A DNA stretch of 60,725 bases from Vicinamibacteria bacterium (GTDB lineage Bacteria > Acidobacteriota > Vicinamibacteria > Vicinamibacterales > CAVVIG01), in assembly GCA_041485905.1 (NCBI GenBank), contig JBGPKK010000005.1, forward strand, positions 1 through 60,725. Reading direction: 5' to 3'. A program made the translations under genes and the position numbers. Of this stretch, positions 5,322-41,193 are shown in pieces (positions within the stretch are counted from its first letter, which is position 1; each line of letters starts with the position of its first letter). The notes under the pieces are model-generated. The model searched no databases. It saw only the letters and a list, made by a program, of their open reading frames with translations, and was not told where the DNA came from.

Positions 5322-6323
5322 ATGCCATCCCAACCACGCATTACGGCCGTTCGCCCCTTCTGGGCCATCGAGGGCGGCCGCATCAGGATTGAAGGTTCAG
5401 GCTTTCCTGTCGACGGCCCGCGTCTGCCGGAGGTGCGGATCGGGGGCCAGCCCGCCCGCGTCGTGTACGGGTCGCCGGGCGCCCTCGCCGTCGTGGTTCC
5501 GGCGCTCGCCGACGGCGGTCGGACCGAGATCCGCATCGACGGCGTGCCGGGTGAAACGGCGTACGTCGAAGTGGCCACGACGCTTGCGACCGGCCTGCAC
5601 CAGGTGGACAACCCGGTCTTCGATCGCGCGGGCAACCTGTATGTGACCTACAGCGGCACGCGCGGCCAGGAAGTGCTCGTATCGATTTTCTGCGTGCGGC
5701 CAAACGGGACCCGCGAAACGTTCTCGTCCGGCATCGTGAATCCCACGTCGATGGCGATCGATCCCGAGGATCGGCTGTACGTCTCGAGCCGGTTCGAGGG
5801 CACCGTGTACCGCGTCGAGTCGGACGGATCGTCTAAACCGTTTGCGACCGATCTTGGCGTCGCGTGCGGGCTGGCGTTCGCGCCGGATGGCACGTTGTTC
5901 GTGGGCGACCGCTCGGGCACGATCTTCCGCGTCGATCGCGAGGGGCACGCCACTCGGTTCGCGGCGCTGCCGCCGAGCGTGGCGGCCTTTCATCTGGCTC
6001 TCGCCCCGGACCTGGCGTTGCACGTCGCCGCACCGACGCTGTCGTCCTACGACACGATTTATCGGATCGATTCCAACGGCGTGATCACGGAGCCGTACGC
6101 CAGATTCGGACGGCCGCAGGGGCTGGCCTTCGACGCAAACGGCACGCTGTTCGTCGTCGAAGCGCTCGCCGGCACGAGCGGACTCTATCGTCTTCCCGCC
6201 GGCGGCGCGCCCGAGTTCGTGCTCGCGGGTCCCGGTCTCGTCGGCGTCGCCTTCGATCCGCGCGGCGGCCTCGTCGTGTGCTCCAACGAAACGGCGTATC
6301 GACTGCCCAAGTCTCAAGTGTGA
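5322..6323 (+). CDS. IPT/TIG domain plus NHL/SMP-30-like beta-propeller protein
   Basis: N-terminal ITAVRP..GGRIRIEGSGF module. Then repeated blades (GNLYVTY, DRLYVSS, PDGTLFVGD, ANGTLFVVE). Confidence 0.7.
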   Translation: MPSQPRITAVRPFWAIEGGRIRIEGSGFPVDGPRLPEVRIGGQPARVVYGSPGALAVVVPALADGGRTEIRIDGVPGETAYVEVATTLATGLHQVDNPVFDRAGNLYVTYSGTRGQEVLVSIFCVRPNGTRETFSSGIVNPTSMAIDPEDRLYVSSRFEGTVYRVESDGSSKPFATDLGVACGLAFAPDGTLFVGDRSGTIFRVDREGHATRFAALPPSVAAFHLALAPDLALHVAAPTLSSYDTIYRIDSNGVITEPYARFGRPQGLAFDANGTLFVVEALAGTSGLYRLPAGGAPEFVLAGPGLVGVAFDPRGGLVVCSNETAYRLPKSQV

Positions 6324-9860: not shown

Positions 9861-9990
9861 CCCCGGATCCTGTCCATTTCGCCTGCGGATTATGGCTCTG
9901 GAGCTGAGCCGTTCGCGCGGCGGCGTGCTACGATCGTGGTTTCGGAAGTCGCGGGAATTCGCGACCAGAATCTCAAGCACCCTGACACCC

Positions 9991-12945
9991 ATGGCGCACG
10001 ACTGGATTGCGGTGCGCGGCGCGCGCGTCCACAACCTGAAAAACATCGACGTCGATATCCCGCGGCACAAGCTTGTGGTCATCACGGGCCTGTCCGGCTC
10101 GGGCAAATCGTCGCTGGCCTTCGACACGATTTACGCCGAGGGGCAGCGCCGGTACGTCGAGTCGCTCTCGGCGTACGCGCGCCAGTTCCTCGAACAAATG
10201 GAGAAGCCCGACGTCGATTCGATCGACGGGCTCTCCCCGGCGATTTCGATCGAGCAGAAGACGACTGGGTCCAACCCAAGGTCCACGGTTGGGACCGTCA
10301 CGGAAATCTACGATTACCTCCGGCTGCTGTTTGCGAACATCGGCGTCCCGCACTGTCCCAACTGCGGCAAAGCCATCACGTCCCAGTCGCTCGAGCGTAT
10401 CGTCGACATGGTGATGCTCTATCCGCAGGACGAGCGCATCAACGTGCTGGCGCCGCTCGTGCGCGGCCGGAAGGGGGAGTTCAAGAAGGAGCTCGCCGGA
10501 CTGCGCGCGCGCGGGTTCACCAAGGCGCGCATCGACGGTCAGTTCCGCGCGCTCGAGGAGGACATCAAGCTGGATCGCCGCCGCAATCACACGATCGAGG
10601 TTGTCGTCGATCGCGTGATCGTGCGGGGAGGGGTCGAGCGCCGCTTGACCGAATCGATCGACATGGCGTTGAACCTCGCCGAAGATATCGTGGTCATCAA
10701 CTCGTTCGACGGCGGGGACCGGCTCTTCTCGCGAAAACTGGCGTGCGTCGACTGCGGGATCAGTATGCCAGAGATGACGCCGCGCGCCTTCTCGTTCAAC
10801 TCGCCGCACGGCGCCTGCGCCGACTGCCAGGGCCTTGGCGCGACGATCGATTTCGATCCGCAGCGGGTCGTGCCGGACGAATCGCGATCGCTCGCGGACG
10901 GCGCGATCGCGCCGTGGAACAGGGGCGATCGCCGGTTCGTTCGCGACGCGCTGCAGGGGTTGAGCCGCAACTTCGGCATCGACCTCACGGTGGCCTTCGG
11001 CAAGCTGCCGCGCAAGGCGCGCGAAGTGCTGCTCTTCGGAAGCGGCACCAGCAAGGGCGCGTTCGAAGGACTGATCCCGAACCTGCGGCGGCGGTACGAG
11101 GAGGGCAGTTGGGCGGATCAGGAGGAGCTCGAGGGGTTCCGATCGCTGCGGCCCTGCCCGACGTGCCGCGGCGAACGTCTGAAAACGCAGAGCCTGTCGG
11201 TGAAGGTCAAAGGCCGCACGATCGCCGACCACGTGAACCTGCCGATTTCCGAAGCTCAGAAGGTTGTCGAGAGCCTGCAGTTGACCGATCGGGAAGCGAT
11301 CATTGCCGAGCGCCTGCTCAAAGAGATTCACGATCGGCTGCGGTTCCTGAACGACGTCGGCGTCGGGTATCTGACACTCGGCCGGAGCGCGGCTACGCTA
11401 TCGGGCGGCGAGGGGCAGCGGATCCGGCTGGCCACGCAAATCGGCGCGAACCTCACCGGCGTGCTGTACGTCCTCGACGAGCCGTCGATCGGACTGCATC
11501 AACGCGACAACCGCAAGTTGCTGGCGACGCTGTCGCGGCTCCGCGACCTTGGCAATACGGTCATCGTCGTCGAGCACGATGAAGAGACGATCCGCACGGC
11601 CGATTACGTGATCGATCTCGGTCCCGGCGCCGGGGAGCACGGCGGAGAGGTGATCTTTCAGGGCACGCCGAAGGCGCTAATGGAAAGCGCCACCGAAGCG
11701 GAAAGGGCCACGGAAAAGGGGTCGGGAGTCGTTTCCAGCGGTGACGCCGGGGACGAATTTGGCTCAAAAACAGGCCTGAAAGTGGGTAGAACGGCCGTGG
11801 AAAAGGGGTCGGGAGTCGTAGAAAAGGGGTCAGGAATCCCCTTTTCTTTGACTGGCGCCTATCTCATCGGCGCGCGCTCGATCGCCACGCCGACCGTGCG
11901 GCGGCCGCAGCTGCGGGGCGACATCGTCATTCGCGGCGCTCGGGCCAACAATCTGAAGAACATCGACGTCCGGATCCCCCTCGGCGTGCTGACGGCCGTG
12001 ACGGGGGTCAGCGGATCGGGCAAATCGACACTCGTCAACGACATCCTCTATGCGTCGCTGGCGCGGACGCTGTACAGGGCCGCCGCCGAGCCCGGCGCGC
12101 ACGATCGCATCGAGGGCGTCGAACTGGTCGACAAGGTCATCGAGATCGATCAGTCGCCGATCGGCCGGACGCCGCGGTCCAATCCGGCGACGTATACGGG
12201 CCTCTTCACCTTCATCCGCGATTTGTTCGCGATGATGCCCGACGCCAAAGCGCGCGGCTTCAGGCCGGGCCGCTTCTCGTTCAACGTGAAAGGGGGGCGC
12301 TGCGAAGCGTGCCAGGGCGACGGCGTGATGGCGATCGAAATGCACTTCCTGCCCGACGTCTACGTCACCTGCGAGCAGTGCAAGGGCCGCCGGTACAACA
12401 CGGAGACGCTCGAGATCAGATACCGCGGGAAATCGATCGCCGAGGTCCTCGATCTCACCGTCGATCAGGCGCTGCCGCTGCTCGAGAACTTCCCGGCGAT
12501 CGCCAACAAGCTGCGCACGCTGCAGGACGTCGGACTCGGCTACATCGAACTCGGACAGTCGGCGACGACGCTGTCGGGTGGAGAGGCGCAGCGGGTCAAG
12601 CTGTCGAAAGAGCTGTCGAAGCGCGGCACCGGCCGGACGTTGTACATCCTCGATGAGCCGACCACCGGCCTGCACTTCGAAGACACGCGCAAGCTGCTCG
12701 ACGTGCTGCACAAACTGGTCGACCAAGGCAATACGATTGTCGTCATCGAGCACAACCTCGACGTCATCAAGGCGGCCGACTACCTCATCGATCTCGGACC
12801 TGAAGGCGGCGCCGCCGGCGGACGGATCGTGGGTGAGGGGACCCCCGAAGAAGTCGCTCGTAACGAGCAGTCGGCGACGGGTCGATTCCTGGCCGGCCTC
12901 CTCGCCGACGAGGCGGGACGTCCGATACGTTCCGCTGCGGTCTGA
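9991..12945 (+). CDS. uvrA: excinuclease ABC subunit A
   Basis: Two ABC halves ([20 protein letters not shown]) and Cys zinc modules. Start set at ATG 9991 ([18 protein letters not shown]). Confidence 0.97.
11686..11846. repeat. in-frame repeat/hairpin insertion inside uvrA
   Basis: GGAAAAGGGGTCGGGAGTCGT at 11712-11732 and again at 11799-11819. Hairpin GAAAAGGGG-TCAGGAAT-CCCCTTTTC at 11821-11846. Encodes [23 protein letters not shown]. Confidence 0.8.
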
Positions 12946-14196: not shown

Positions 14197-14724
14197 ATGC
14201 GACGTGTACTCTTGTTGCTCGTGGTGGCGGCACTGGCGGTGCCGGCGGCGGTCCTGGCCCAGGCCAAACCTGATTTCTCGGGCACCTGGACGCTCGACAC
14301 AGCGAAAAGCGATCCTCCGCCGCAGCGTGGTGGTGGCGGCGGAGCGCCGGGCGGTGGCGGAGCCCCGGGCGGCGGCGCTGCTCGCGCCGGTGGTGGAGGC
14401 GGCGGGCGCGGGGGCGGCCCTGTGACGATCATGATGATGCCGACCGGTCTGATGATCGGCGACGTCACCTACAAGCTTGATGGCTCGGAGCAGACCGTTC
14501 AGCTGCAGGGCCGCGGAGGTCCCCAGCCGGCCAAGGTCAAGGCACGGTGGGACGACAGCGGCAAGAAGCTTCTCATCGAGACGGTTCGAGAGGCCAACGG
14601 CAACACGATCACGACGAAGGAAGAGCGCTCGCTGAGCGCCGACGGCAAAGAGATGACCGTCGAGACGACCAACGTCACCCCGAACGGTGAGCAGAAGCGG
14701 AAGACGGTCTTCACCAAAGGCTAG
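14197..14724 (+). CDS. secreted hypothetical protein with Gly-rich tract
   Basis: Signal peptide MRRVLLLLVVAALAVPAAVLAQA. GAGGAGGA precedes ATG 14197. About 35 aa of G/A/P low complexity. No family recognised. Confidence 0.65.
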   Translation: MRRVLLLLVVAALAVPAAVLAQAKPDFSGTWTLDTAKSDPPPQRGGGGGAPGGGGAPGGGAARAGGGGGGRGGGPVTIMMMPTGLMIGDVTYKLDGSEQTVQLQGRGGPQPAKVKARWDDSGKKLLIETVREANGNTITTKEERSLSADGKEMTVETTNVTPNGEQKRKTVFTKG

Positions 14725-14737
14725 ACTCGAACGGATC

Positions 14738-14761
14738 GGGGCACGGTTCCAGCCGTGCCCC
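14738..14761. terminator. GC hairpin between convergent genes
   Basis: GGGGCACGG TTCCAG CCGTGCCCC, perfect 9-bp stem, no U tract. Confidence 0.5.
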
Positions 14762-14785: not shown

Positions 14786-16147
14786 TTATCTGACCCAGAG
14801 ATTCTTGATGGTGGTCATCGAGCCGCAGTGCTCGAACCAGTCGATCCCCTCGCTGACCAGGTCAAATTTCAGCGCGTATCGTCCCGGTTGCTTCGGCGCC
14901 GGAATCTCGATCGGCACGTCGAGCGCGCCTCCCGGGCCGAGCGTCTCGGGCAGCCACGCGCGCGCAAAATCCCGGTCGATCACCGTCCCTGCCTCGTCGC
15001 ACAGCTGCGCGCCGAGGCGCACGAGTCGACGGCCGTAGGTGGCCTGCGCGGGAAACGCGCGGGTGGACAGGTTGTGCACGCGCGTGCGCACGCGCAGCGC
15101 GCGACCCGCGCGGGTCATCAGCGGGACGCCTGGCACCAGCGTCCGCACATCAATGCGCGCCCGTGGCATCGCGCCGGGGATCGCGTTGCCGAGATCGTTG
15201 TCGTCCCAGATTTCGTGCCGGATCGATTCGAGCGGCGGCGATCCCGGCACGAACCGGCGCGAGTATCCGGTTTCCGGATGGTCGGTGATTTCCCAACACA
15301 GCCGATCGACGCCGATGTCGGCCGCCAGCTCGCGTGCGCGGTTCATTTCCTCGTCGCTGTCGTTCCAGACGAAGAGGATGTACCGCCAGTTCAGGAACGG
15401 AAGATCCCGGCCGGCCCGGCGCTTCTCCCCGGCCATCGTCCGGAGCGTCTGGATGGCGAGGTCGAAGCGGCCGCGCTGACGGTATTTGACGTAACTCTCC
15501 GGCGTCGCGCCGTCGATCGAGAACGTCACTTCATCGATGCCCGAGTGCACGAGGCGCCTCGCCTGCGCGTCGGTCAGCGCCAGGCCGTTCGTGCTCGTGT
15601 ACAGGTAGATGTGCGGAAAGCGGGACTTGATGTACTCGCACATCTCGACCGCCCGCTTGTGCAGGAACGCTTCACCGTAGTTGAAGAAATCGATGCGTCC
15701 CAGCGACGGACCGGCTTCGTCGATGACGCGGCGGAACAGGTCGAAGTCGAGCATGCCCGCCTGTCGCGTGCGCGTGATGCCGGTCTCGGGCGCGCAGCAG
15801 GCCTCCGCGCACGAGATATTGCACGCGGCGGTGCATTCGACGTAGAGACGCGACGGCAAGGCGCCGGCATCGACGGACCGGACAACCGGCGCGTCGTCTT
15901 TTTTCAGCGGCAGCTTGAGCGCGCAATCGCCGCAGAATTTCGACCCGCCCGCGTTCAGGTCGGTGCGGAGCGCCGAGATGGTCTGTCCCGTCCAGACGTC
16001 GTTCACCGACGCGGTCCGCATGTCGCCGAGCACACGGTGTCCGTAAGGGTCCGCGCAGCCGCAGACCATCCGGCCGTCGCACAACATGACCAGCGTCGTC
16101 CATGGCCACGAACACTGGAAGCGGGTTGACAGGTAATTCAGCGACAT
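14786..16147 (-). CDS. radical SAM enzyme with N-terminal SPASM/twitch-like Cys domain and C-terminal Ig-like domain
   Basis: Core ECTAACNISCAEACC, FFNYGEAFL, YTSTNG, SIDG. N-terminus C..LVMLCDGRMVCGC..LGDM..SVNDVW..LR..CGDC. C-terminus GRYALKFDLVSEGIDWF. Confidence 0.85.
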   Translation of the reverse strand: MSLNYLSTRFQCSWPWTTLVMLCDGRMVCGCADPYGHRVLGDMRTASVNDVWTGQTISALRTDLNAGGSKFCGDCALKLPLKKDDAPVVRSVDAGALPSRLYVECTAACNISCAEACCAPETGITRTRQAGMLDFDLFRRVIDEAGPSLGRIDFFNYGEAFLHKRAVEMCEYIKSRFPHIYLYTSTNGLALTDAQARRLVHSGIDEVTFSIDGATPESYVKYRQRGRFDLAIQTLRTMAGEKRRAGRDLPFLNWRYILFVWNDSDEEMNRARELAADIGVDRLCWEITDHPETGYSRRFVPGSPPLESIRHEIWDDNDLGNAIPGAMPRARIDVRTLVPGVPLMTRAGRALRVRTRVHNLSTRAFPAQATYGRRLVRLGAQLCDEAGTVIDRDFARAWLPETLGPGGALDVPIEIPAPKQPGRYALKFDLVSEGIDWFEHCGSMTTIKNLWVR

Positions 16148-16414
16148 CTACTTCTTCGACAGCCGTCGCATATACGCTTCGAGTTTGTCGTTCTCGTATT
16201 TGACCGTGTTGAGGAACAGGCTCTCGGCGAGGTACGTGCGCCGATCGGCCTCGTCCATTTGATCGATGAGATGTTGAATTTCCTTGACGAGGTCCTCGAA
16301 GGAGCGCTCGAGCTCGCGCTTGGCGGTCACTTCACGATAGAGCGTTTCCAGGACCGCCAGCAGATCGCCGTCGAGCGGGATCGCGGCGCCGGTCGTCGTT
16401 TTAATGGTGTGCAT
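16148..16414 (-). CDS. 88-aa helical hypothetical protein
   Basis: ATG 16414 lies 4 nt after the STAS stop. Its TAG (16148-16150) directly abuts the ATG of the radical SAM gene. No Cys. Charged heptad-like sequence. Confidence 0.65.
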   Translation of the reverse strand: MHTIKTTTGAAIPLDGDLLAVLETLYREVTAKRELERSFEDLVKEIQHLIDQMDEADRRTYLAESLFLNTVKYENDKLEAYMRRLSKK

Positions 16415-16418
16415 GGTG

Positions 16419-16760
16419 CTATACCCCGAAGCTCTTGACCGCGGCCGGCTCGTCGGCATGGATCTCGATGAAGTTCTGCGCGCCGGTCATCGTCAGCATC
16501 GTCTCCACACGCTTCTGGACGCCGGACAGCTTCAGATGTCCGCCCGCGTTGTGAACCTGACGGTAGAGGTCCATCAGACAGCCGATGGTCGCGCTATCCA
16601 CATAGGTGACCGGCGTGAGGTCGATCAGAATCTCGCGCTTGCCGCCGGCAACGAGCCCGCTGACGGCTGAAGAGAAATCCGAGAGGATCGGATACATCAG
16701 GCGTGTCTCGCCCACCCGGACGATCGAGACGCCGCCGGACTGTTCGGTTCTGACATTCAT
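16419..16760 (-). CDS. STAS-domain anti-sigma-factor antagonist
   Basis: ILIDLTPVTYVDSATIGCLMDL contains the conserved phosphorylatable Ser context. Alternative GTG start at 16823 overlaps the sigma stop. Confidence 0.82.
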   Translation of the reverse strand: MNVRTEQSGGVSIVRVGETRLMYPILSDFSSAVSGLVAGGKREILIDLTPVTYVDSATIGCLMDLYRQVHNAGGHLKLSGVQKRVETMLTMTGAQNFIEIHADEPAAVKSFGV

Positions 16761-16822
16761 CAAATGCTCCTCGGTCCGGTTGCCGCCTCCGAAGGCGGGA
16801 AGCCGGACATCATGTACTACCA

Positions 16823-17428
16823 CTACATACGGCTACCGTCACCGCCGAGCCGCTTCACATGCCGTGCAAGCTCGGTGCGCCCCCGGTTGATGCGCGACTT
16901 GACCGTGCCTTCCGGCAAACCGAGCGCGTCGGCGATTTCCTGGTAGGACATCTCCTGGATGTCCCGCATGAGCACGGCGGTCTTGAGCGTGTCGGGCAGC
17001 CTGGCGAGCGCGTGGCGCAGCAGCACGACGCGATCGCGCTGCTCGAGGACCGCGATCGGCCCGGGCTCGTGCGACGTCGGCGTCAGCTCGTTCGCGTCGA
17101 CGTCCCGATCGATGGTCTCGCGCTCCTTGCGGACGCTGCGGTAATGATCGATGCACAGATTGCGGCTGACACTGATCAGCCAGGTCTGAAAGTTGGCCCG
17201 CCGATCGAAGGTGCTGAGAGACTTGAAAATCTTCAGGAAGACGTCCTGGGTGAGGTCTTCCGCTTCGTCGTGCTTCCCGACGAACTTGTACGCGATGTTG
17301 AACACCTTCCGCCAGTACTGGCGAACGATGATCTCCCACGCGGTCTGGTCGCCGCGCAGGCATTGTTGGATGAGCGTCTCGAGGGCATCGCCCGCATAGG
17401 GTGGCGCGCCCAGTGAATCGGTCCACAT
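16823..17428 (-). CDS. ECF-type sigma-70 family sigma factor
   Basis: Region 2 (DLTQDVFLKIF, FQTWLISVSRNLCID) and region 4 (SYQEIADALGLPEGTVKSRINRGR). Start ATG 17428 or GTG 17455. Confidence 0.88.
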   Translation of the reverse strand: MWTDSLGAPPYAGDALETLIQQCLRGDQTAWEIIVRQYWRKVFNIAYKFVGKHDEAEDLTQDVFLKIFKSLSTFDRRANFQTWLISVSRNLCIDHYRSVRKERETIDRDVDANELTPTSHEPGPIAVLEQRDRVVLLRHALARLPDTLKTAVLMRDIQEMSYQEIADALGLPEGTVKSRINRGRTELARHVKRLGGDGSRM

Positions 17429-17456
17429 GAAGGATTGAGTAAAATAGCGTATCACG

Positions 17457-18710
17457 TTGCCTCAACCGACCGGCTTCTATCGACGCGCGAAGGATGAACT
17501 CGTCTGCGACGGCGTGCGGCTCGCCGACGTCGCTGCCGCCGAAGGCACGCCCTTGTACGTCTACAGCGCGGCGGTGCTGCGCGACCGCTACCAGGCCATC
17601 GATGCGGCGTTCGGCGAGTATCCGCACGCGCTGCATTACGCACTGAAGGCGAACTCGGCGCTGGCCCTCGCGCGCCTCGTGCAGAAGCTCGGCGGCGCGG
17701 CGGACGCGAACTCCATCTGGGAAATCGAGCTGGCCCGCAAGGCCGGCTTTGAGAATGCTGCGATTGTATTCACCGGGGTCGGCAAATCGGTCGACGAGCT
17801 TGAATGCGCCGTCTCGCTCGGGCTGAAGGCCATCAACGTCGAATCGGCGGGGGAGCTGGCGCGCGTCGAAGCCATAGCTGAGCGCCTCCATGTCGTGGCC
17901 CGTGTCGCGGTTCGAGTGAATCCGGACATCGATTCGGGAAGCCATCCCCACATTTCGACCGGCCTCAAGATCAACAAGTTCGGCGTGCCGCTCGACGATG
18001 CCCGGGAGTTGTTCTCGACGATCGGCGGGCGTCGCGCGTTGAAGCTGGTCGCCGTGCACGTCCACGTCGGCTCCCAGATCACGACCCTCGAGCCGCTGCG
18101 GCGCGCGGCCGCGATCGCCGCACGCATGTCCGAAGAGCTTCTCGACGCCGGCGTAAGCCTCGAATACGTCGATCTTGGCGGCGGGCTCGGGATTTCGTAC
18201 GACGGCCGTGAAGTCCCATCCGTCGAAGAGTACGTCGGTGCCCTCGTCGGCGAAGTGCGCGCGAGCGGCCTGCCGATTGTCGTCGAGCCAGGCCGGGCGA
18301 TTGCGGGTCCGGCTGGCGTCCTCGTGGCACGGGTCATCGATATCAAGCCGCGCGACGGGTCCAGCGACTTCGTCGTGATCGACGCCGGCATGACGGAGCT
18401 GATGCGGCCGGCGCTCTACGGCGCCTTTCATCGGATCGAACCGGTCGCGCCGCGTGACGCCGCCGAGCGTCAGTACGAGATCGTCGGGCCGGTCTGCGAG
18501 AGCAGCGACGTCGTTGGGCGCGATCGCCGGCTGCCGGCGCTCGAGGTCGGCGATCTGGTCGCCATCCGCGACGCCGGCGCGTACGGATCGGCCATGGCGT
18601 CCAACTACAACCGGCGGCCACTGCCGGCGGAAGTGCTCGTAGACGAAGGGAAATGGCGAGTAATCAGGCGTCGACAGACGTTGGACGACATGCTTTCCCT
18701 CGAGACCTAA
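17457..18710 (+). CDS. lysA: diaminopimelate decarboxylase
   Basis: GTPLYVYS, PLP-Lys context YALKANS, GGGLGI, EPGRAI, CESSD. TTG start at 17457 is uncertain. Confidence 0.93.
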   Translation: MPQPTGFYRRAKDELVCDGVRLADVAAAEGTPLYVYSAAVLRDRYQAIDAAFGEYPHALHYALKANSALALARLVQKLGGAADANSIWEIELARKAGFENAAIVFTGVGKSVDELECAVSLGLKAINVESAGELARVEAIAERLHVVARVAVRVNPDIDSGSHPHISTGLKINKFGVPLDDARELFSTIGGRRALKLVAVHVHVGSQITTLEPLRRAAAIAARMSEELLDAGVSLEYVDLGGGLGISYDGREVPSVEEYVGALVGEVRASGLPIVVEPGRAIAGPAGVLVARVIDIKPRDGSSDFVVIDAGMTELMRPALYGAFHRIEPVAPRDAAERQYEIVGPVCESSDVVGRDRRLPALEVGDLVAIRDAGAYGSAMASNYNRRPLPAEVLVDEGKWRVIRRRQTLDDMLSLET

Positions 18711-39644: not shown

Positions 39645-39727
39645 CCTTGTCCATGGCGAAGGCAGCCCGGCCGGCGGCGGCCCATCACCGTCTAAGTACG
39701 CGAGAGGAAGGGCTTTCCGCGCTCCGC

Positions 39728-40315
39728 ATGCCGTGGACGGACGAAGAGCTCGTCGCCCAATCGATCGGCGGCGATGCCGACAGCTTCAACGAGCTCATCC
39801 ACCGATGGGAACGTCCCATCTATGTCCTCGCCTATCGCCAAATCGGGCGCGAGGAGGATGCGCGCGACGTGTGTCAGGAGACGTTTCTCCGGGCCTATCG
39901 CGCGCTGGGCGGGTTTCGGGGACAGTCGAAGTTCTCGTCGTGGCTGTACCGGATCGCCCTCAACTTGTGCCGCGACTGGATGCGGCGCGAGCGGCGGACG
40001 CCCATCGTGCAGGCGCCGGAGGACGTGGACGTGCTGGATCTGATCGCGGCGCGCGGGCCGTCGGAATCGATGGAGGATCTGGTCGCGCGTCACGATCTGA
40101 CGCGGGCCGTCGAGCGGGCGATGGCGCTCCTGCCGGAAGAACAGCGCACGGCGATCGTCTTGAAGGAATATCACGGGCTGACGTTCCAGGAAATCGCGGA
40201 TCTGATCGGGTGTCCGTTGAGCACGGTCAAAACACGCCTCTATCAGGGACTGACGGTTTTGCGGCGTGAGCTGGCGCGCACGGGGCTGATGGAAAAGAAG
40301 AATCTGACCAAATAG
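39728..40315 (+). CDS. ECF sigma factor (RpoE-like)
   Basis: DVCQETFLRAY, FSSWLYRIALNLCRD, FQEIADLIGCPLSTVKTRLYQG. Start ATG 39728. Confidence 0.9.
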   Translation: MPWTDEELVAQSIGGDADSFNELIHRWERPIYVLAYRQIGREEDARDVCQETFLRAYRALGGFRGQSKFSSWLYRIALNLCRDWMRRERRTPIVQAPEDVDVLDLIAARGPSESMEDLVARHDLTRAVERAMALLPEEQRTAIVLKEYHGLTFQEIADLIGCPLSTVKTRLYQGLTVLRRELARTGLMEKKNLTK

Positions 40316-40323
40316 GTGATCGC

Positions 40324-41193
40324 ATGGCCGACATTCTTTGTGGGTACACCGCCGATCGGGACGAGACACTGATTGCGTACGTGTACGGCGAGATCGAGCC
40401 GGCACAGCGCGCGGCGTTCGATGCGCACATCGGCACGTGCGACCGTTGTCGGAAGGAGCTGGCCGACCTGCGCGGCGTGCGCGGGCGTCTCCAGGAGTGG
40501 ACCGCGCCGGCGATCGGATCGATCGCACGCGATGTCGCCCCTGTGGGCGGTATGGGCGGTGTCGGCCCCGGTCGGCCGCCCGCCCCGAGCGTCGGGCGCG
40601 CGGGCATCTGGGTGACGCTTGGCCAGGTTCCGGCGTGGGCGCAGGTGGCCGCTGCGTTACTCGTCCTCGGCGTATCGGCCGGCGTGGCCAATCTCGACGT
40701 CCGCTACGACCGGAGCGGTCTCAGCATTCACACCGGGTGGTCGCGAACGCCGGCGCGAGTCGAGTCGTCGGGTCCAGGCGGCGTGGCCGGGATTCAGACG
40801 GCCGACGCGAAGTCTGCGGCGACGCCCTGGCGCACCGATCTCAACGCGCTCGAACGCCGGTTGCGCACGGAGTTCCACGGGTCGGCTCCCTCTGGCGGCG
40901 CGGCGCTGATGGTGCGCGACGCCGGCAGCGCTCCCTCAATCGAGCCACAACTGCTTCGACGCGTGCGCGCCCTCGTCGACGACAGCGAGCGCAAGCAGCA
41001 AACCGAGCTGGCGCTGCGGATCGCCGAAGTCGTGCGCGAGTTCGACACGAAGCGGAAGACCGATCTGGCGAATATCGACTGGAACTTCAAAGCCATGCAG
41101 AGCAATACGAGCATGCGGGTGGCAACTGGGCAGCAATTGATGAGGGATTACATCGACGGCACGGTGGTCCCGATCATTTCCCGGCAAAAGTAG
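40324..41193 (+). CDS. zf-HC2 anti-sigma factor, single-pass membrane protein
   Basis: N-terminal HIGTCDRCRKEL zinc motif, one TM helix (WAQVAAALLVLGVSAGV), and position directly after the ECF sigma. Confidence 0.8.
   Translation: MADILCGYTADRDETLIAYVYGEIEPAQRAAFDAHIGTCDRCRKELADLRGVRGRLQEWTAPAIGSIARDVAPVGGMGGVGPGRPPAPSVGRAGIWVTLGQVPAWAQVAAALLVLGVSAGVANLDVRYDRSGLSIHTGWSRTPARVESSGPGGVAGIQTADAKSAATPWRTDLNALERRLRTEFHGSAPSGGAALMVRDAGSAPSIEPQLLRRVRALVDDSERKQQTELALRIAEVVREFDTKRKTDLANIDWNFKAMQSNTSMRVATGQQLMRDYIDGTVVPIISRQK

Follow-up and report, generated by a model that had tools for sequence, protein, structure and literature searches.

A sigma-STAS-p88 gene cassette as a candidate non-canonical partner switch for an ECF sigma factor in the Vicinamibacterales

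How might an extracytoplasmic function (ECF) sigma factor be controlled when the gene behind it encodes a STAS protein and no recognizable anti-sigma factor lies beside it? The question is raised by a 60,725-nucleotide (nt) stretch of a Vicinamibacteria bacterium chromosome (Vicinamibacterales, Acidobacteriota; soil and sediment; assembly GCA_041485905.1, contig JBGPKK010000005.1), referred to here as the window. A list of open reading frames (ORFs) and a reading of the strand place four minus-strand genes at 14786–17455, which code for an ECF sigma, a STAS protein, an 88-amino-acid (aa) protein that we call p88, and a radical S-adenosylmethionine (SAM) enzyme. An adjacent cognate anti-sigma with an ASD or zf-HC2 domain is typical of ECF sigmas but not universal, and elsewhere STAS partner switches go together with kinases of the RsbW type and sigmas of the B/F type. 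We propose that the sigma-STAS-p88 cassette is a phosphorylation-gated partner switch in which the kinase-less p88 would stand in RsbW's place, a reading whose chances of being correct we put at even. The radical SAM enzyme, by contrast, appears to be co-expressed cargo in a variable slot and would lie outside the switch. The four genes are as follows.

16823 to 17428, minus strand: ECF-type sigma, 201 aa from the conserved ATG, with sigma-2 and sigma-4 domains only
16419 to 16760, minus strand: single-domain STAS protein of the anti-sigma-factor antagonist type, 113 aa (PF01740, TIGR00377)
16148 to 16414, minus strand: p88, unannotated protein of 88 aa, always encoded directly downstream of the STAS gene
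14786 to 16147, minus strand: radical SAM enzyme, 453 aa (PF04055 and PF13186), facultative cargo of the operon

Comparison of the four window proteins, together with LysA and LpxC, drew on 80 loci from GTDB species representatives and on additional contigs (loci are given L numbers); counts for the trio and its junctions use informative loci, those with enough flank. In 76 of 76 informative species representatives of the Vicinamibacterales, the genes for sigma, STAS, and p88 form an unbroken row. At the sigma-STAS junction, 56 of 71 loci have a stop and start that overlap by 1 or 4 nt; at the next junction, 68 of 74 species representatives have the p88 start 1–5 nt past the STAS stop; and translational coupling of the trio is the rule in the Vicinamibacterales. 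STAS and p88 genes are adjacent in every locus examined. In the window, the operon is flanked by housekeeping genes, with uvrA and lpxC on one side and lysA, tmk, rsfS, nadD, obg, L27, and L21 on the other, and this neighborhood is syntenic across the order. The trio is also intact in two loci that have lost the upstream synteny (L094 and L095). The same gene order is seen in dozens of species, and the arrangement is not due to chance.

Reading of the strand gave an exact match to the four-gene layout and junction positions described in the initial annotation, which was made from the letters of the window and its ORFs. The sigma stop (TAG, 16825–16823) is followed after 62 nt by the STAS ATG at 16760, with GGAG before it; the STAS stop (TAG, 16421–16419) is followed by four nucleotides, CACC, and then the p88 ATG at 16414; and the p88 stop (TAG, 16150–16148) directly abuts the radical SAM ATG at 16147. 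Because the STAS protein has 113 aa in nearly all relatives and p88 has 87–89 aa in most, ATG 16760 and ATG 16414 were taken as the starts. Two starts had been offered for STAS, and the protein's length in relatives retains the ATG and removes the GTG at 16823. For sigma, an alignment of 29 upstream regions replaced the GTG at 17455 with a conserved ATG at 17428, upstream of which lies a conserved non-coding motif.

The sigma protein scored 71.7 bits against PF04542 (Sigma70_r2), 63.3 bits against PF08281 (r4_2), 35.6 bits against PF07638 (Sigma70_ECF), and 115.7 bits against the NCBIfam model TIGR02937 (cutoff, 42.9). With two domains only and a score over threshold, it falls in the ECF class (sigma-70 group 4), and the Pfam and NCBIfam scores bear out the first assignment. 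No NCBIfam equivalog model reached its cutoff, the best being sigma_PG0214 (111.8 versus 130). The neighbors of the sigma gene are the divergent lysA, STAS, and p88, and no recognizable ASD/zf-HC2 anti-sigma was found beside it. A second ECF-type sigma of 222 aa is encoded in the window at 39647–40315 on the plus strand, and 9 nt after it is a gene for a 289-aa protein with an HxxxCxxC motif (AHIGTCDRCRKEL) that was spotted by eye only. Together (39647–41193), these look like a canonical pair of ECF sigma and zinc anti-sigma and offer an internal contrast to STAS-p88.

Assignment of the STAS protein to the anti-sigma antagonists, also as first annotated, is supported by PF01740 (56.2 bits; cutoff, 22.6) and by TIGR00377, which it passes marginally (53.9 bits; cutoff, 53.45). 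Asp55-Ser56 lies at the phospho-serine position of RsbV and SpoIIAA, in the sequence VDSATIG, which corresponds to the DS(x)G motif that the family has at the start of helix 2. Residues D55, S56, and G60 are invariant in an alignment of 45 STAS-p88 pairs that includes distant lineages. Both proteins are under purifying selection, with an uncorrected ratio of nonsynonymous to synonymous differences (pN/pS) of about 0.24–0.26 for STAS with p88 and about 0.24 for p88, at a pS near saturation. A search for the expected kinase used RsbW and SpoIIAB as tblastn queries and had limited sensitivity; it returned no RsbW/SpoIIAB-type kinase in 93 loci and, in the window, only the ATPase domains of histidine kinases at 33.4–33.6 kb and 37.5–37.7 kb. 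No PP2C/SpoIIE phosphatase was detectable in the window. Profile searches and the tblastn search, with the limited sensitivity of the latter, agree with the earlier statement that the operon encodes neither a kinase nor a zf-HC2 anti-sigma.

The remaining member of the trio, p88, has no family in Pfam or NCBIfam, where only noise was returned at E <= 0.1, and none in PHROG or PADLOC. The best match in a profile search of the PDB was not significant (E value of 0.19), and Foldseek against the PDB gave a best E value of 1.2 with a template modeling (TM) score below 0.5. The initial annotation had named no family for p88, and in the Pfam, NCBIfam, PDB profile, and Foldseek searches p88 belongs to none that is described. 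There was no HATPase match and no GHKL domain (HATPase_c_2, about 140 aa) in a protein of only 88 aa, no ASD or zf-HC2 match, and no HxxxCxxC motif. Comparison using hhalign gave probabilities of 0.06% for FlgM and 0.3% for SpoIIAB, with no match to PF04316 or to a NepR family. The AlphaFold2 model (pLDDT of 87) has a beta-hairpin at residues 3–13 and helices at 18–36, 39–51, and 55–87, and p88 is accordingly modeled as compact, small, and mostly helical, as soluble anti-sigmas are. An N-terminal likeness to an AbrB/VapB-type hairpin in the PDB profile search (E value of 0.4) was judged to be noise, and two names given to p88 by JGI, "phage gp29-like protein" and "M32 carboxypeptidase," were unsupported by every profile search.

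Clustering of the p88 family gives more than 8000 clusters at 90% identity and only 277 representatives at 50%, and the family is known from at least 556 GTDB species; homologs are annotated as Vicinamibacterales/Acidobacteriota. Invariant residues are concentrated in LDGD and ESLFLNxVxYEN. Mean pairwise distances were 0.21 for p88, 0.21 for LpxC, 0.23 for sigma, 0.25 for STAS, and 0.35 for LysA, and p88 diverges as slowly as LpxC. A mirror-tree analysis that took LysA and LpxC as background showed residual co-variation between sigma and STAS distances (partial r = 0.34, a value reached in 0 of 500 permutations).

Divergent members of the p88 family (40%–55% identity) were traced to their contigs, and the pair is claimed here for the Acidobacteriota only. 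Each of these loci has a gene for a STAS protein of 113–115 aa directly upstream of p88, with a spacing of 1 nt in L087 and about 55 nt in L090 and L091 and an overlap of 4 nt in L092 and L093. A tblastn search with the window's sigma, which could miss a divergent ECF sigma, found none within about 6–8 kb of these pairs. A GT87-like membrane glycosyltransferase is upstream of the pair in L087, a metagenome-assembled genome (MAG) labeled as Acidobacteriota; a hybrid histidine kinase with HDOD and receiver domains follows the pair in L090 and L091 (63%–66% GC); and in L092 and L093 (41% GC), GAF-HD-GYP, Crp-like, and GGDEF genes come before the pair and a GT2 glycosyltransferase comes after it. 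Because divergent pairs occur in other contexts without a detected adjacent sigma, STAS-p88 would be a portable module of two genes that predates the trio and that the Vicinamibacterales appear to have coupled to an ECF sigma. Upstream of the pair in L087 (7219–7570), overlapping ORFs repeat one peptide, which implies direct DNA repeats roughly 90–100 nt apart in a non-coding gap.

The initial annotation treated the four genes as one operon in which the radical SAM enzyme might modify p88 or be the regulated output. The quartet does recur in relatives, being syntenic in 31 of the 80 species representatives (L081, a Luteitalea sp. MAG, also has all four genes), and the annotation is thus not refuted by a lack of synteny in every related genome. 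The quartet did not hold as a conserved unit, since the radical SAM gene can be lost, decayed, displaced, or replaced (intact, 31; partial or decayed, 4; absent, 42; undetermined, 3). Remnants in which 163–411 of 453 residues can be aligned are present in L001/L008 (about 10878–11660 in L001), L024, L030, and L040; these truncated or frameshifted copies point to recurrent loss, and some may be assembly errors in long-read MAGs. In L048, L056, and L075 the gene is displaced by 0.6–3.6 kb and lies behind its own TAnnnT housekeeping-like box. In the window and about 15 relatives, the p88 and radical SAM genes meet with a spacing of −4 to +4 nt, the stop of the first abutting or overlapping the start of the second, and where the radical SAM gene is absent lpxC often lies within 250 nt after p88. 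Most lineages have p88 without the enzyme, which therefore cannot be required as its modifier; nor does anything mark the enzyme as the defining output. Nor is there the obligatory co-occurrence of precursor and maturase that would suit p88 as a ribosomally synthesized and post-translationally modified peptide (RiPP), the enzyme being missing from all distant lineages as well as from the 42 representatives.

Other genes can occupy the same slot. In L029 (6367–7482), L068 (6367–8598), and L074 (6291–8228), p88 is immediately followed, in the same orientation, by a gene for a HAMP-SpoIIE (PP2C) membrane phosphatase (PF07228, E value of 5e-48). Further cargo consists of a PMT_2/TPR glycosyltransferase with a DUF411 protein (L089), a TonB-dependent receptor (L086), an M19 dipeptidase (L016), and a metallo-beta-lactamase-fold protein (L036). 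In L037, a DDE-family transposase is found immediately after p88 (910–2142). The slot behind the trio appears to be an insertion hot spot. Spacers between p88 and the radical SAM gene can be made of tandem 7–8-nt units and their reverse complements, such as (GTGCTGG)n ... (CCAGCAC)n, that would form long hairpins; these are located at 6149–6312 in L005, 6268–6368 in L010, 6268–6382 in L026, 6268–6419 in L030, 6268–6367 in L044, 6268–6359 in L045, and 6268–6424 in L070. Such a spacer may be a lineage-specific intergenic repeat, or it may act as an attenuator or stabilizer between the trio and its cargo.

The radical SAM protein itself scored 38.5 bits against PF04055 (cutoff, 29.5; residues 104–239) and 30.1 bits against the SPASM family PF13186 (cutoff, 21.5), the latter at residues 12–75 and therefore N-terminal. 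Its layout is an N-terminal twitch/SPASM-like Cys domain (about 10–76) with conserved Cys12, 23, 29, 31, 72, and 75, a core (about 100–290), and a C-terminal Ig/NBR1-FW-like beta-sandwich (about 330–452). A C-terminal SPASM/twitch auxiliary domain, as such enzymes are classified by, is not found; the domain sits at the other end. The canonical CX3CX2C motif for the [4Fe-4S] cluster and SAM is not present in the protein. The core has instead C105-TAA-C109-NIS-C113-AEA-C117-C118, five cysteines with X3/X3/X3/X0 spacing that, judged by the motif, is unusual for the superfamily; Cys105, 109, 113, and 118 are invariant in 36 sequences. All NCBIfam matches were far below their cutoffs, including NF033640, a model of radical SAM proteins with an N-terminal twitch domain (25 bits versus 170). 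The closest solved relative is BtrN (E value of 9e-6). BtrN and the twitch/SPASM enzymes share with this protein a radical SAM core and a Cys-rich auxiliary-cluster domain, but here the auxiliary domain is N-terminal, CX3CX2C is lacking, and there is an extra C-terminal NBR1-FW/Ig-like domain. That C-terminal domain matches the FW domains of NBR1 and ILRUN and a CARDB domain, and in a poor AlphaFold model (pLDDT of 64) it alone gave interpretable matches.

Upstream of the cassette is one further conserved feature, identified in the alignment of 29 upstream regions.

17432 to 17459, minus strand: conserved promoter-like motif CAACGTGATACGCTATTTTACTCAATCC, non-coding, directly 5' of the sigma start

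A TATTTT box within this motif (17446–17441) is 12 nt 5' of the sigma ATG, and because of this position the sigma mRNA would be nearly leaderless; the gene has no Shine-Dalgarno sequence. The motif can alternatively be parsed as an ECF-like GCAAC-N17-TCAAT, and a scan with the sigma-70 consensus gave no match at the sigma upstream region. It overlaps the start codon of the divergent lysA. Only 28 nt (17429–17456) separate the sigma start (ATG 17428) from the lysA start (TTG 17457), which lies on the opposite strand, and as the genes are read here the divergent lysA and sigma promoters must overlap neighboring coding regions. No second full copy of the motif was found in a search for further copies. 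A looser pattern, CAAC-N16-18-TCAA[ACT], has four matches in the window; conserved flanks are established for the one upstream of sigma, and the other three are known by position alone (42309 on the plus strand, 36184 and 22618 on the minus strand).

How the cassette would work can be proposed from these features. In this proposal, p88 would keep sigma inactive, doing the job that RsbW, NepR, or FlgM does elsewhere. Unphosphorylated STAS would bind p88 and free sigma, and a kinase encoded elsewhere would block this binding by phosphorylating STAS at Ser56. A PP2C phosphatase would reverse the phosphorylation; some lineages encode one in cis, and this genome presumably does so in trans. We infer all of the protein-protein contacts and the phosphorylation of STAS from sequence, and on that basis p88 is the probable STAS partner and anti-sigma. 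STAS followed by its partner is the gene order of rsbV-rsbW and spoIIAA-spoIIAB, which counts in favor of the switch, as does the presence in the slot of L029, L068, and L074 of SpoIIE/PP2C, the canonical class of phospho-STAS phosphatase. We also count in its favor that this sigma seems to lack a canonical adjacent anti-sigma while the second ECF sigma in the window has an apparent one. Weighing on the same side are the adjacency of STAS and p88 in unrelated contexts, the strict order of the trio, the invariant D55-S56 of STAS and its pass of TIGR00377, the slow divergence of p88 and its compact, mostly helical model, the co-variation of sigma with STAS, and the precedent of HsbA and FlgM. 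The early suggestion that p88 is a non-canonical partner-switch component is plausible and is now better supported, by the STAS-p88 pair across distant lineages and by PP2C after p88 in three relatives. More broadly, p88 might be a new family of kinase-less switch proteins and anti-sigmas that together with STAS forms a portable module, putting an ECF sigma under STAS/PP2C switching by Ser phosphorylation; this would be a second, independent ECF partner-switch design after NepR-PhyR, fixed in the Vicinamibacterales and re-used in other lineages for cyclic di-GMP (c-di-GMP) or two-component outputs. We offer this wider proposal tentatively, giving it somewhat less than an even chance.

Several results weigh against the proposed switch. 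A kinase for STAS Ser56 was not found in the window or in any relative locus searched. In sequence and in fold, p88 is unlike RsbW/SpoIIAB, FlgM, or any solved structure. Anti-sigmas usually evolve faster than their sigma, and p88 does not. The mirror-tree analysis found no residual co-variation of p88 with sigma or with STAS (partial r of about 0), in a protein that is short and has few variable sites. At least four distant lineages have STAS-p88 with no sigma next to it, and what p88 primarily acts on may therefore be something other than sigma. The element upstream of sigma resembles a housekeeping −10 box no less than it does an ECF promoter, and autoregulation by sigma is accordingly only a possibility. 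Finally, support from RNA for a single transcript was sought, and the sequence matched only unitigs of DNA metagenomes, with no RNA run found.

These points give the most room to a reading in which STAS and p88 are an independent pair whose target is not sigma, such as a c-di-GMP enzyme, a kinase, or an envelope/glycosyltransferase process, and in which sigma shares the operon as a transcriptional driver or through historical accident. The contexts of the pairs without an adjacent sigma would fit, as they lie beside GAF-HD-GYP/Crp/GGDEF genes, an HDOD hybrid kinase, or a GT87-like protein, and p88 is 40%–47% identical across distant lineages, a level that points to a better conserved target than a lineage-specific ECF sigma. 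The lack of residual co-variation between p88 and sigma points the same way. STAS proteins with outputs other than sigma are well documented, in HsbA-HsbD (PMC5085249) and BtrV (PMC7498569). This main rival is nevertheless opposed by the adjacency of sigma, STAS, and p88, which is strict (76/76), includes stop/start overlaps, and is kept after upstream synteny is lost, and by the finding that sigma and STAS co-vary and that no other anti-sigma candidate lies near sigma. We consider it possible but on the unlikely side. That co-variation, which p88-sigma distances do not show, and the overlap of the sigma stop with the STAS start in most relatives, which would favor stoichiometric co-synthesis, could also mean that STAS itself associates with sigma, as a detached version of an SsdA-like fusion, and that p88 inhibits sigma indirectly through STAS in the manner of SipA. 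There is a precedent in Actinoplanes SsdA, which has a STAS domain through which SipA acts (PMC10733313). However, SsdA is of the sigma-B/F type, SipA has an RsbW-like domain that p88 does not have, and the STAS-p88 pairs without sigma show that STAS does not need this sigma. To our knowledge there is no evidence of free STAS proteins binding ECF sigmas, which we also count against such an association, and we judge it improbable.

Two further explanations concern the operon as a whole. If the four genes were a functional unit, the radical SAM enzyme would modify p88 (or STAS or sigma) or would be a dedicated output of sigma. The abutting or overlapping p88 and radical SAM junctions and the 31 complete quartets would agree with this, and the substrates of SPASM/twitch radical SAM enzymes are often peptides from neighboring genes. 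Against it, p88 and the trio persist unchanged in the 42 of 80 representatives that lack the enzyme, p88 also does without it in all distant lineages, the gene decays in the four cases named above or can sit 0.6–3.6 kb away behind its own box, and in several relatives long hairpin repeats part it from p88 or other cargo takes the slot; p88 is moreover a highly conserved folded protein and not a leader-core peptide. We regard this as very unlikely. The whole neighborhood is syntenic across the order, and the gene order could in principle be a neutral relic of chromosomal synteny (lysA ... lpxC-uvrA) with no functional link. That idea was already disfavored and is scarcely credible given that STAS-p88 recurs in four unrelated contexts, that the trio outlasts upstream rearrangement, and that stop/start overlaps are maintained.

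As in RsbV-RsbW-SigB and SpoIIAA-SpoIIAB-SigF, the cassette has a single-domain STAS protein with an Asp-Ser site, encoded immediately 5' of its presumed partner and beside a sigma, and as in switches of the RsbU/RsbP/SpoIIE type there is a SpoIIE/PP2C phosphatase in the same operon, in three relatives only. Unlike the RsbW/SpoIIAB systems, the partner here is an 88-aa protein without a GHKL ATPase/kinase domain, the sigma is of the ECF type, the sigma gene comes first, and no nearby kinase was found. In the HptB-HsbR-HsbA network of P. aeruginosa, dephosphorylated HsbA binds FlgM, and HsbA-P acts through the diguanylate cyclase HsbD (PMC5085249). Switching of a STAS protein onto a small non-kinase anti-sigma is thus a feature of HsbA and is what we propose here, and the link of HsbA to a diguanylate cyclase parallels the GGDEF gene beside the pair in L092 and L093; however, p88 is unrelated to FlgM, the sigma there is FliA, and the kinase/phosphatase HsbR adjoins HsbA there and has no counterpart adjoining STAS here.

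Among ECF sigmas, EcfG-NepR-PhyR (ECF15, Alphaproteobacteria) is the only partner switch tabulated in a 2022 review of non-canonical ECF sigmas (PMC8999054). The proposed roles are similar, with an ECF sigma, a small soluble helical anti-sigma, and a phosphorylation-dependent anti-anti-sigma, but PhyR is a sigma-mimic fused to a receiver domain that histidine kinases phosphorylate on Asp, whereas the candidate here is a STAS protein with a Ser. The btr locus of Bordetella has an ECF sigma (BtrS), an anti-sigma (BtrA), and the partner switchers BtrU, BtrW, and BtrV (PMC7498569). It shares with our loci the combination of ECF sigma, STAS, and PP2C (the last in three relatives here), and it differs in having an RsbW-like BtrW, a separate BtrA, and nothing like p88; BtrUWV control secretion and not BtrS. 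In Actinoplanes missouriensis SsdA, a STAS domain is fused to the sigma and provides the surface used by the inhibitor SipA (PMC10733313). The cassette shows a comparable tie between sigma and STAS, by translational coupling and co-variation instead of fusion, while SsdA is a sigma-B/F-type protein with a fused STAS domain and SipA carries an RsbW-like domain. STAS is not mentioned in the main text of the 2021 ECF reclassification or in the 2022 review (PMC8999054). Because STAS was absent from the ECF literature searched and the btr switch has an RsbW-like kinase and spares its sigma, we rate the trio as a non-canonical partner switch, by prediction, around a new and unannotated small protein family, and not as a categorically new system.

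The region beyond the 3' end of the operon contains a possible terminator.

14738 to 14761, no strand assigned: GC-rich hairpin with a 10-bp stem and a 6-nt loop, in the gap that separates the radical SAM stop from a convergent gene ending at 14724

The hairpin has no T-run, its folding energy of −31.4 kcal/mol over a 66-nt stretch corresponds to a z-score of only −1.5, and the terminator scan did not flag it; it is likely to mark the end of the transcription unit. The convergent ORF (14197–14724, plus strand) has, by eye, a hydrophobic N-terminus like that of a signal peptide and long runs of Gly, Ala, and Pro (GGGGGAPGGGGAPGGG...GGGGGGRGGG). It has no Pfam match, and different genes are found at that position in relatives. 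Farther away, uvrA (9892–12945, plus strand) codes for 1017 aa, compared to 938–955 aa in relatives. An in-frame insertion at 11703–11853 is composed of 21–30-nt repeat units (GAAAAGGGGTCGGGAGTCGT) with a 16-nt inverted repeat and encodes EKGSGVV repeats.

For annotation, the radical SAM gene is better not counted as part of the system. If confirmed, a STAS and 88-aa module acting on an ECF sigma without a kinase would mean that the textbook scheme understates the modularity of the STAS switch. It would also give a function to the p88 family, which comprises more than 8000 sequence clusters and occurs in at least 556 GTDB species. The Vicinamibacterales are widespread in soil and sediment metagenomes and poorly cultured, and the cassette, if it works as proposed, would be a first handle on signal transduction in this order.

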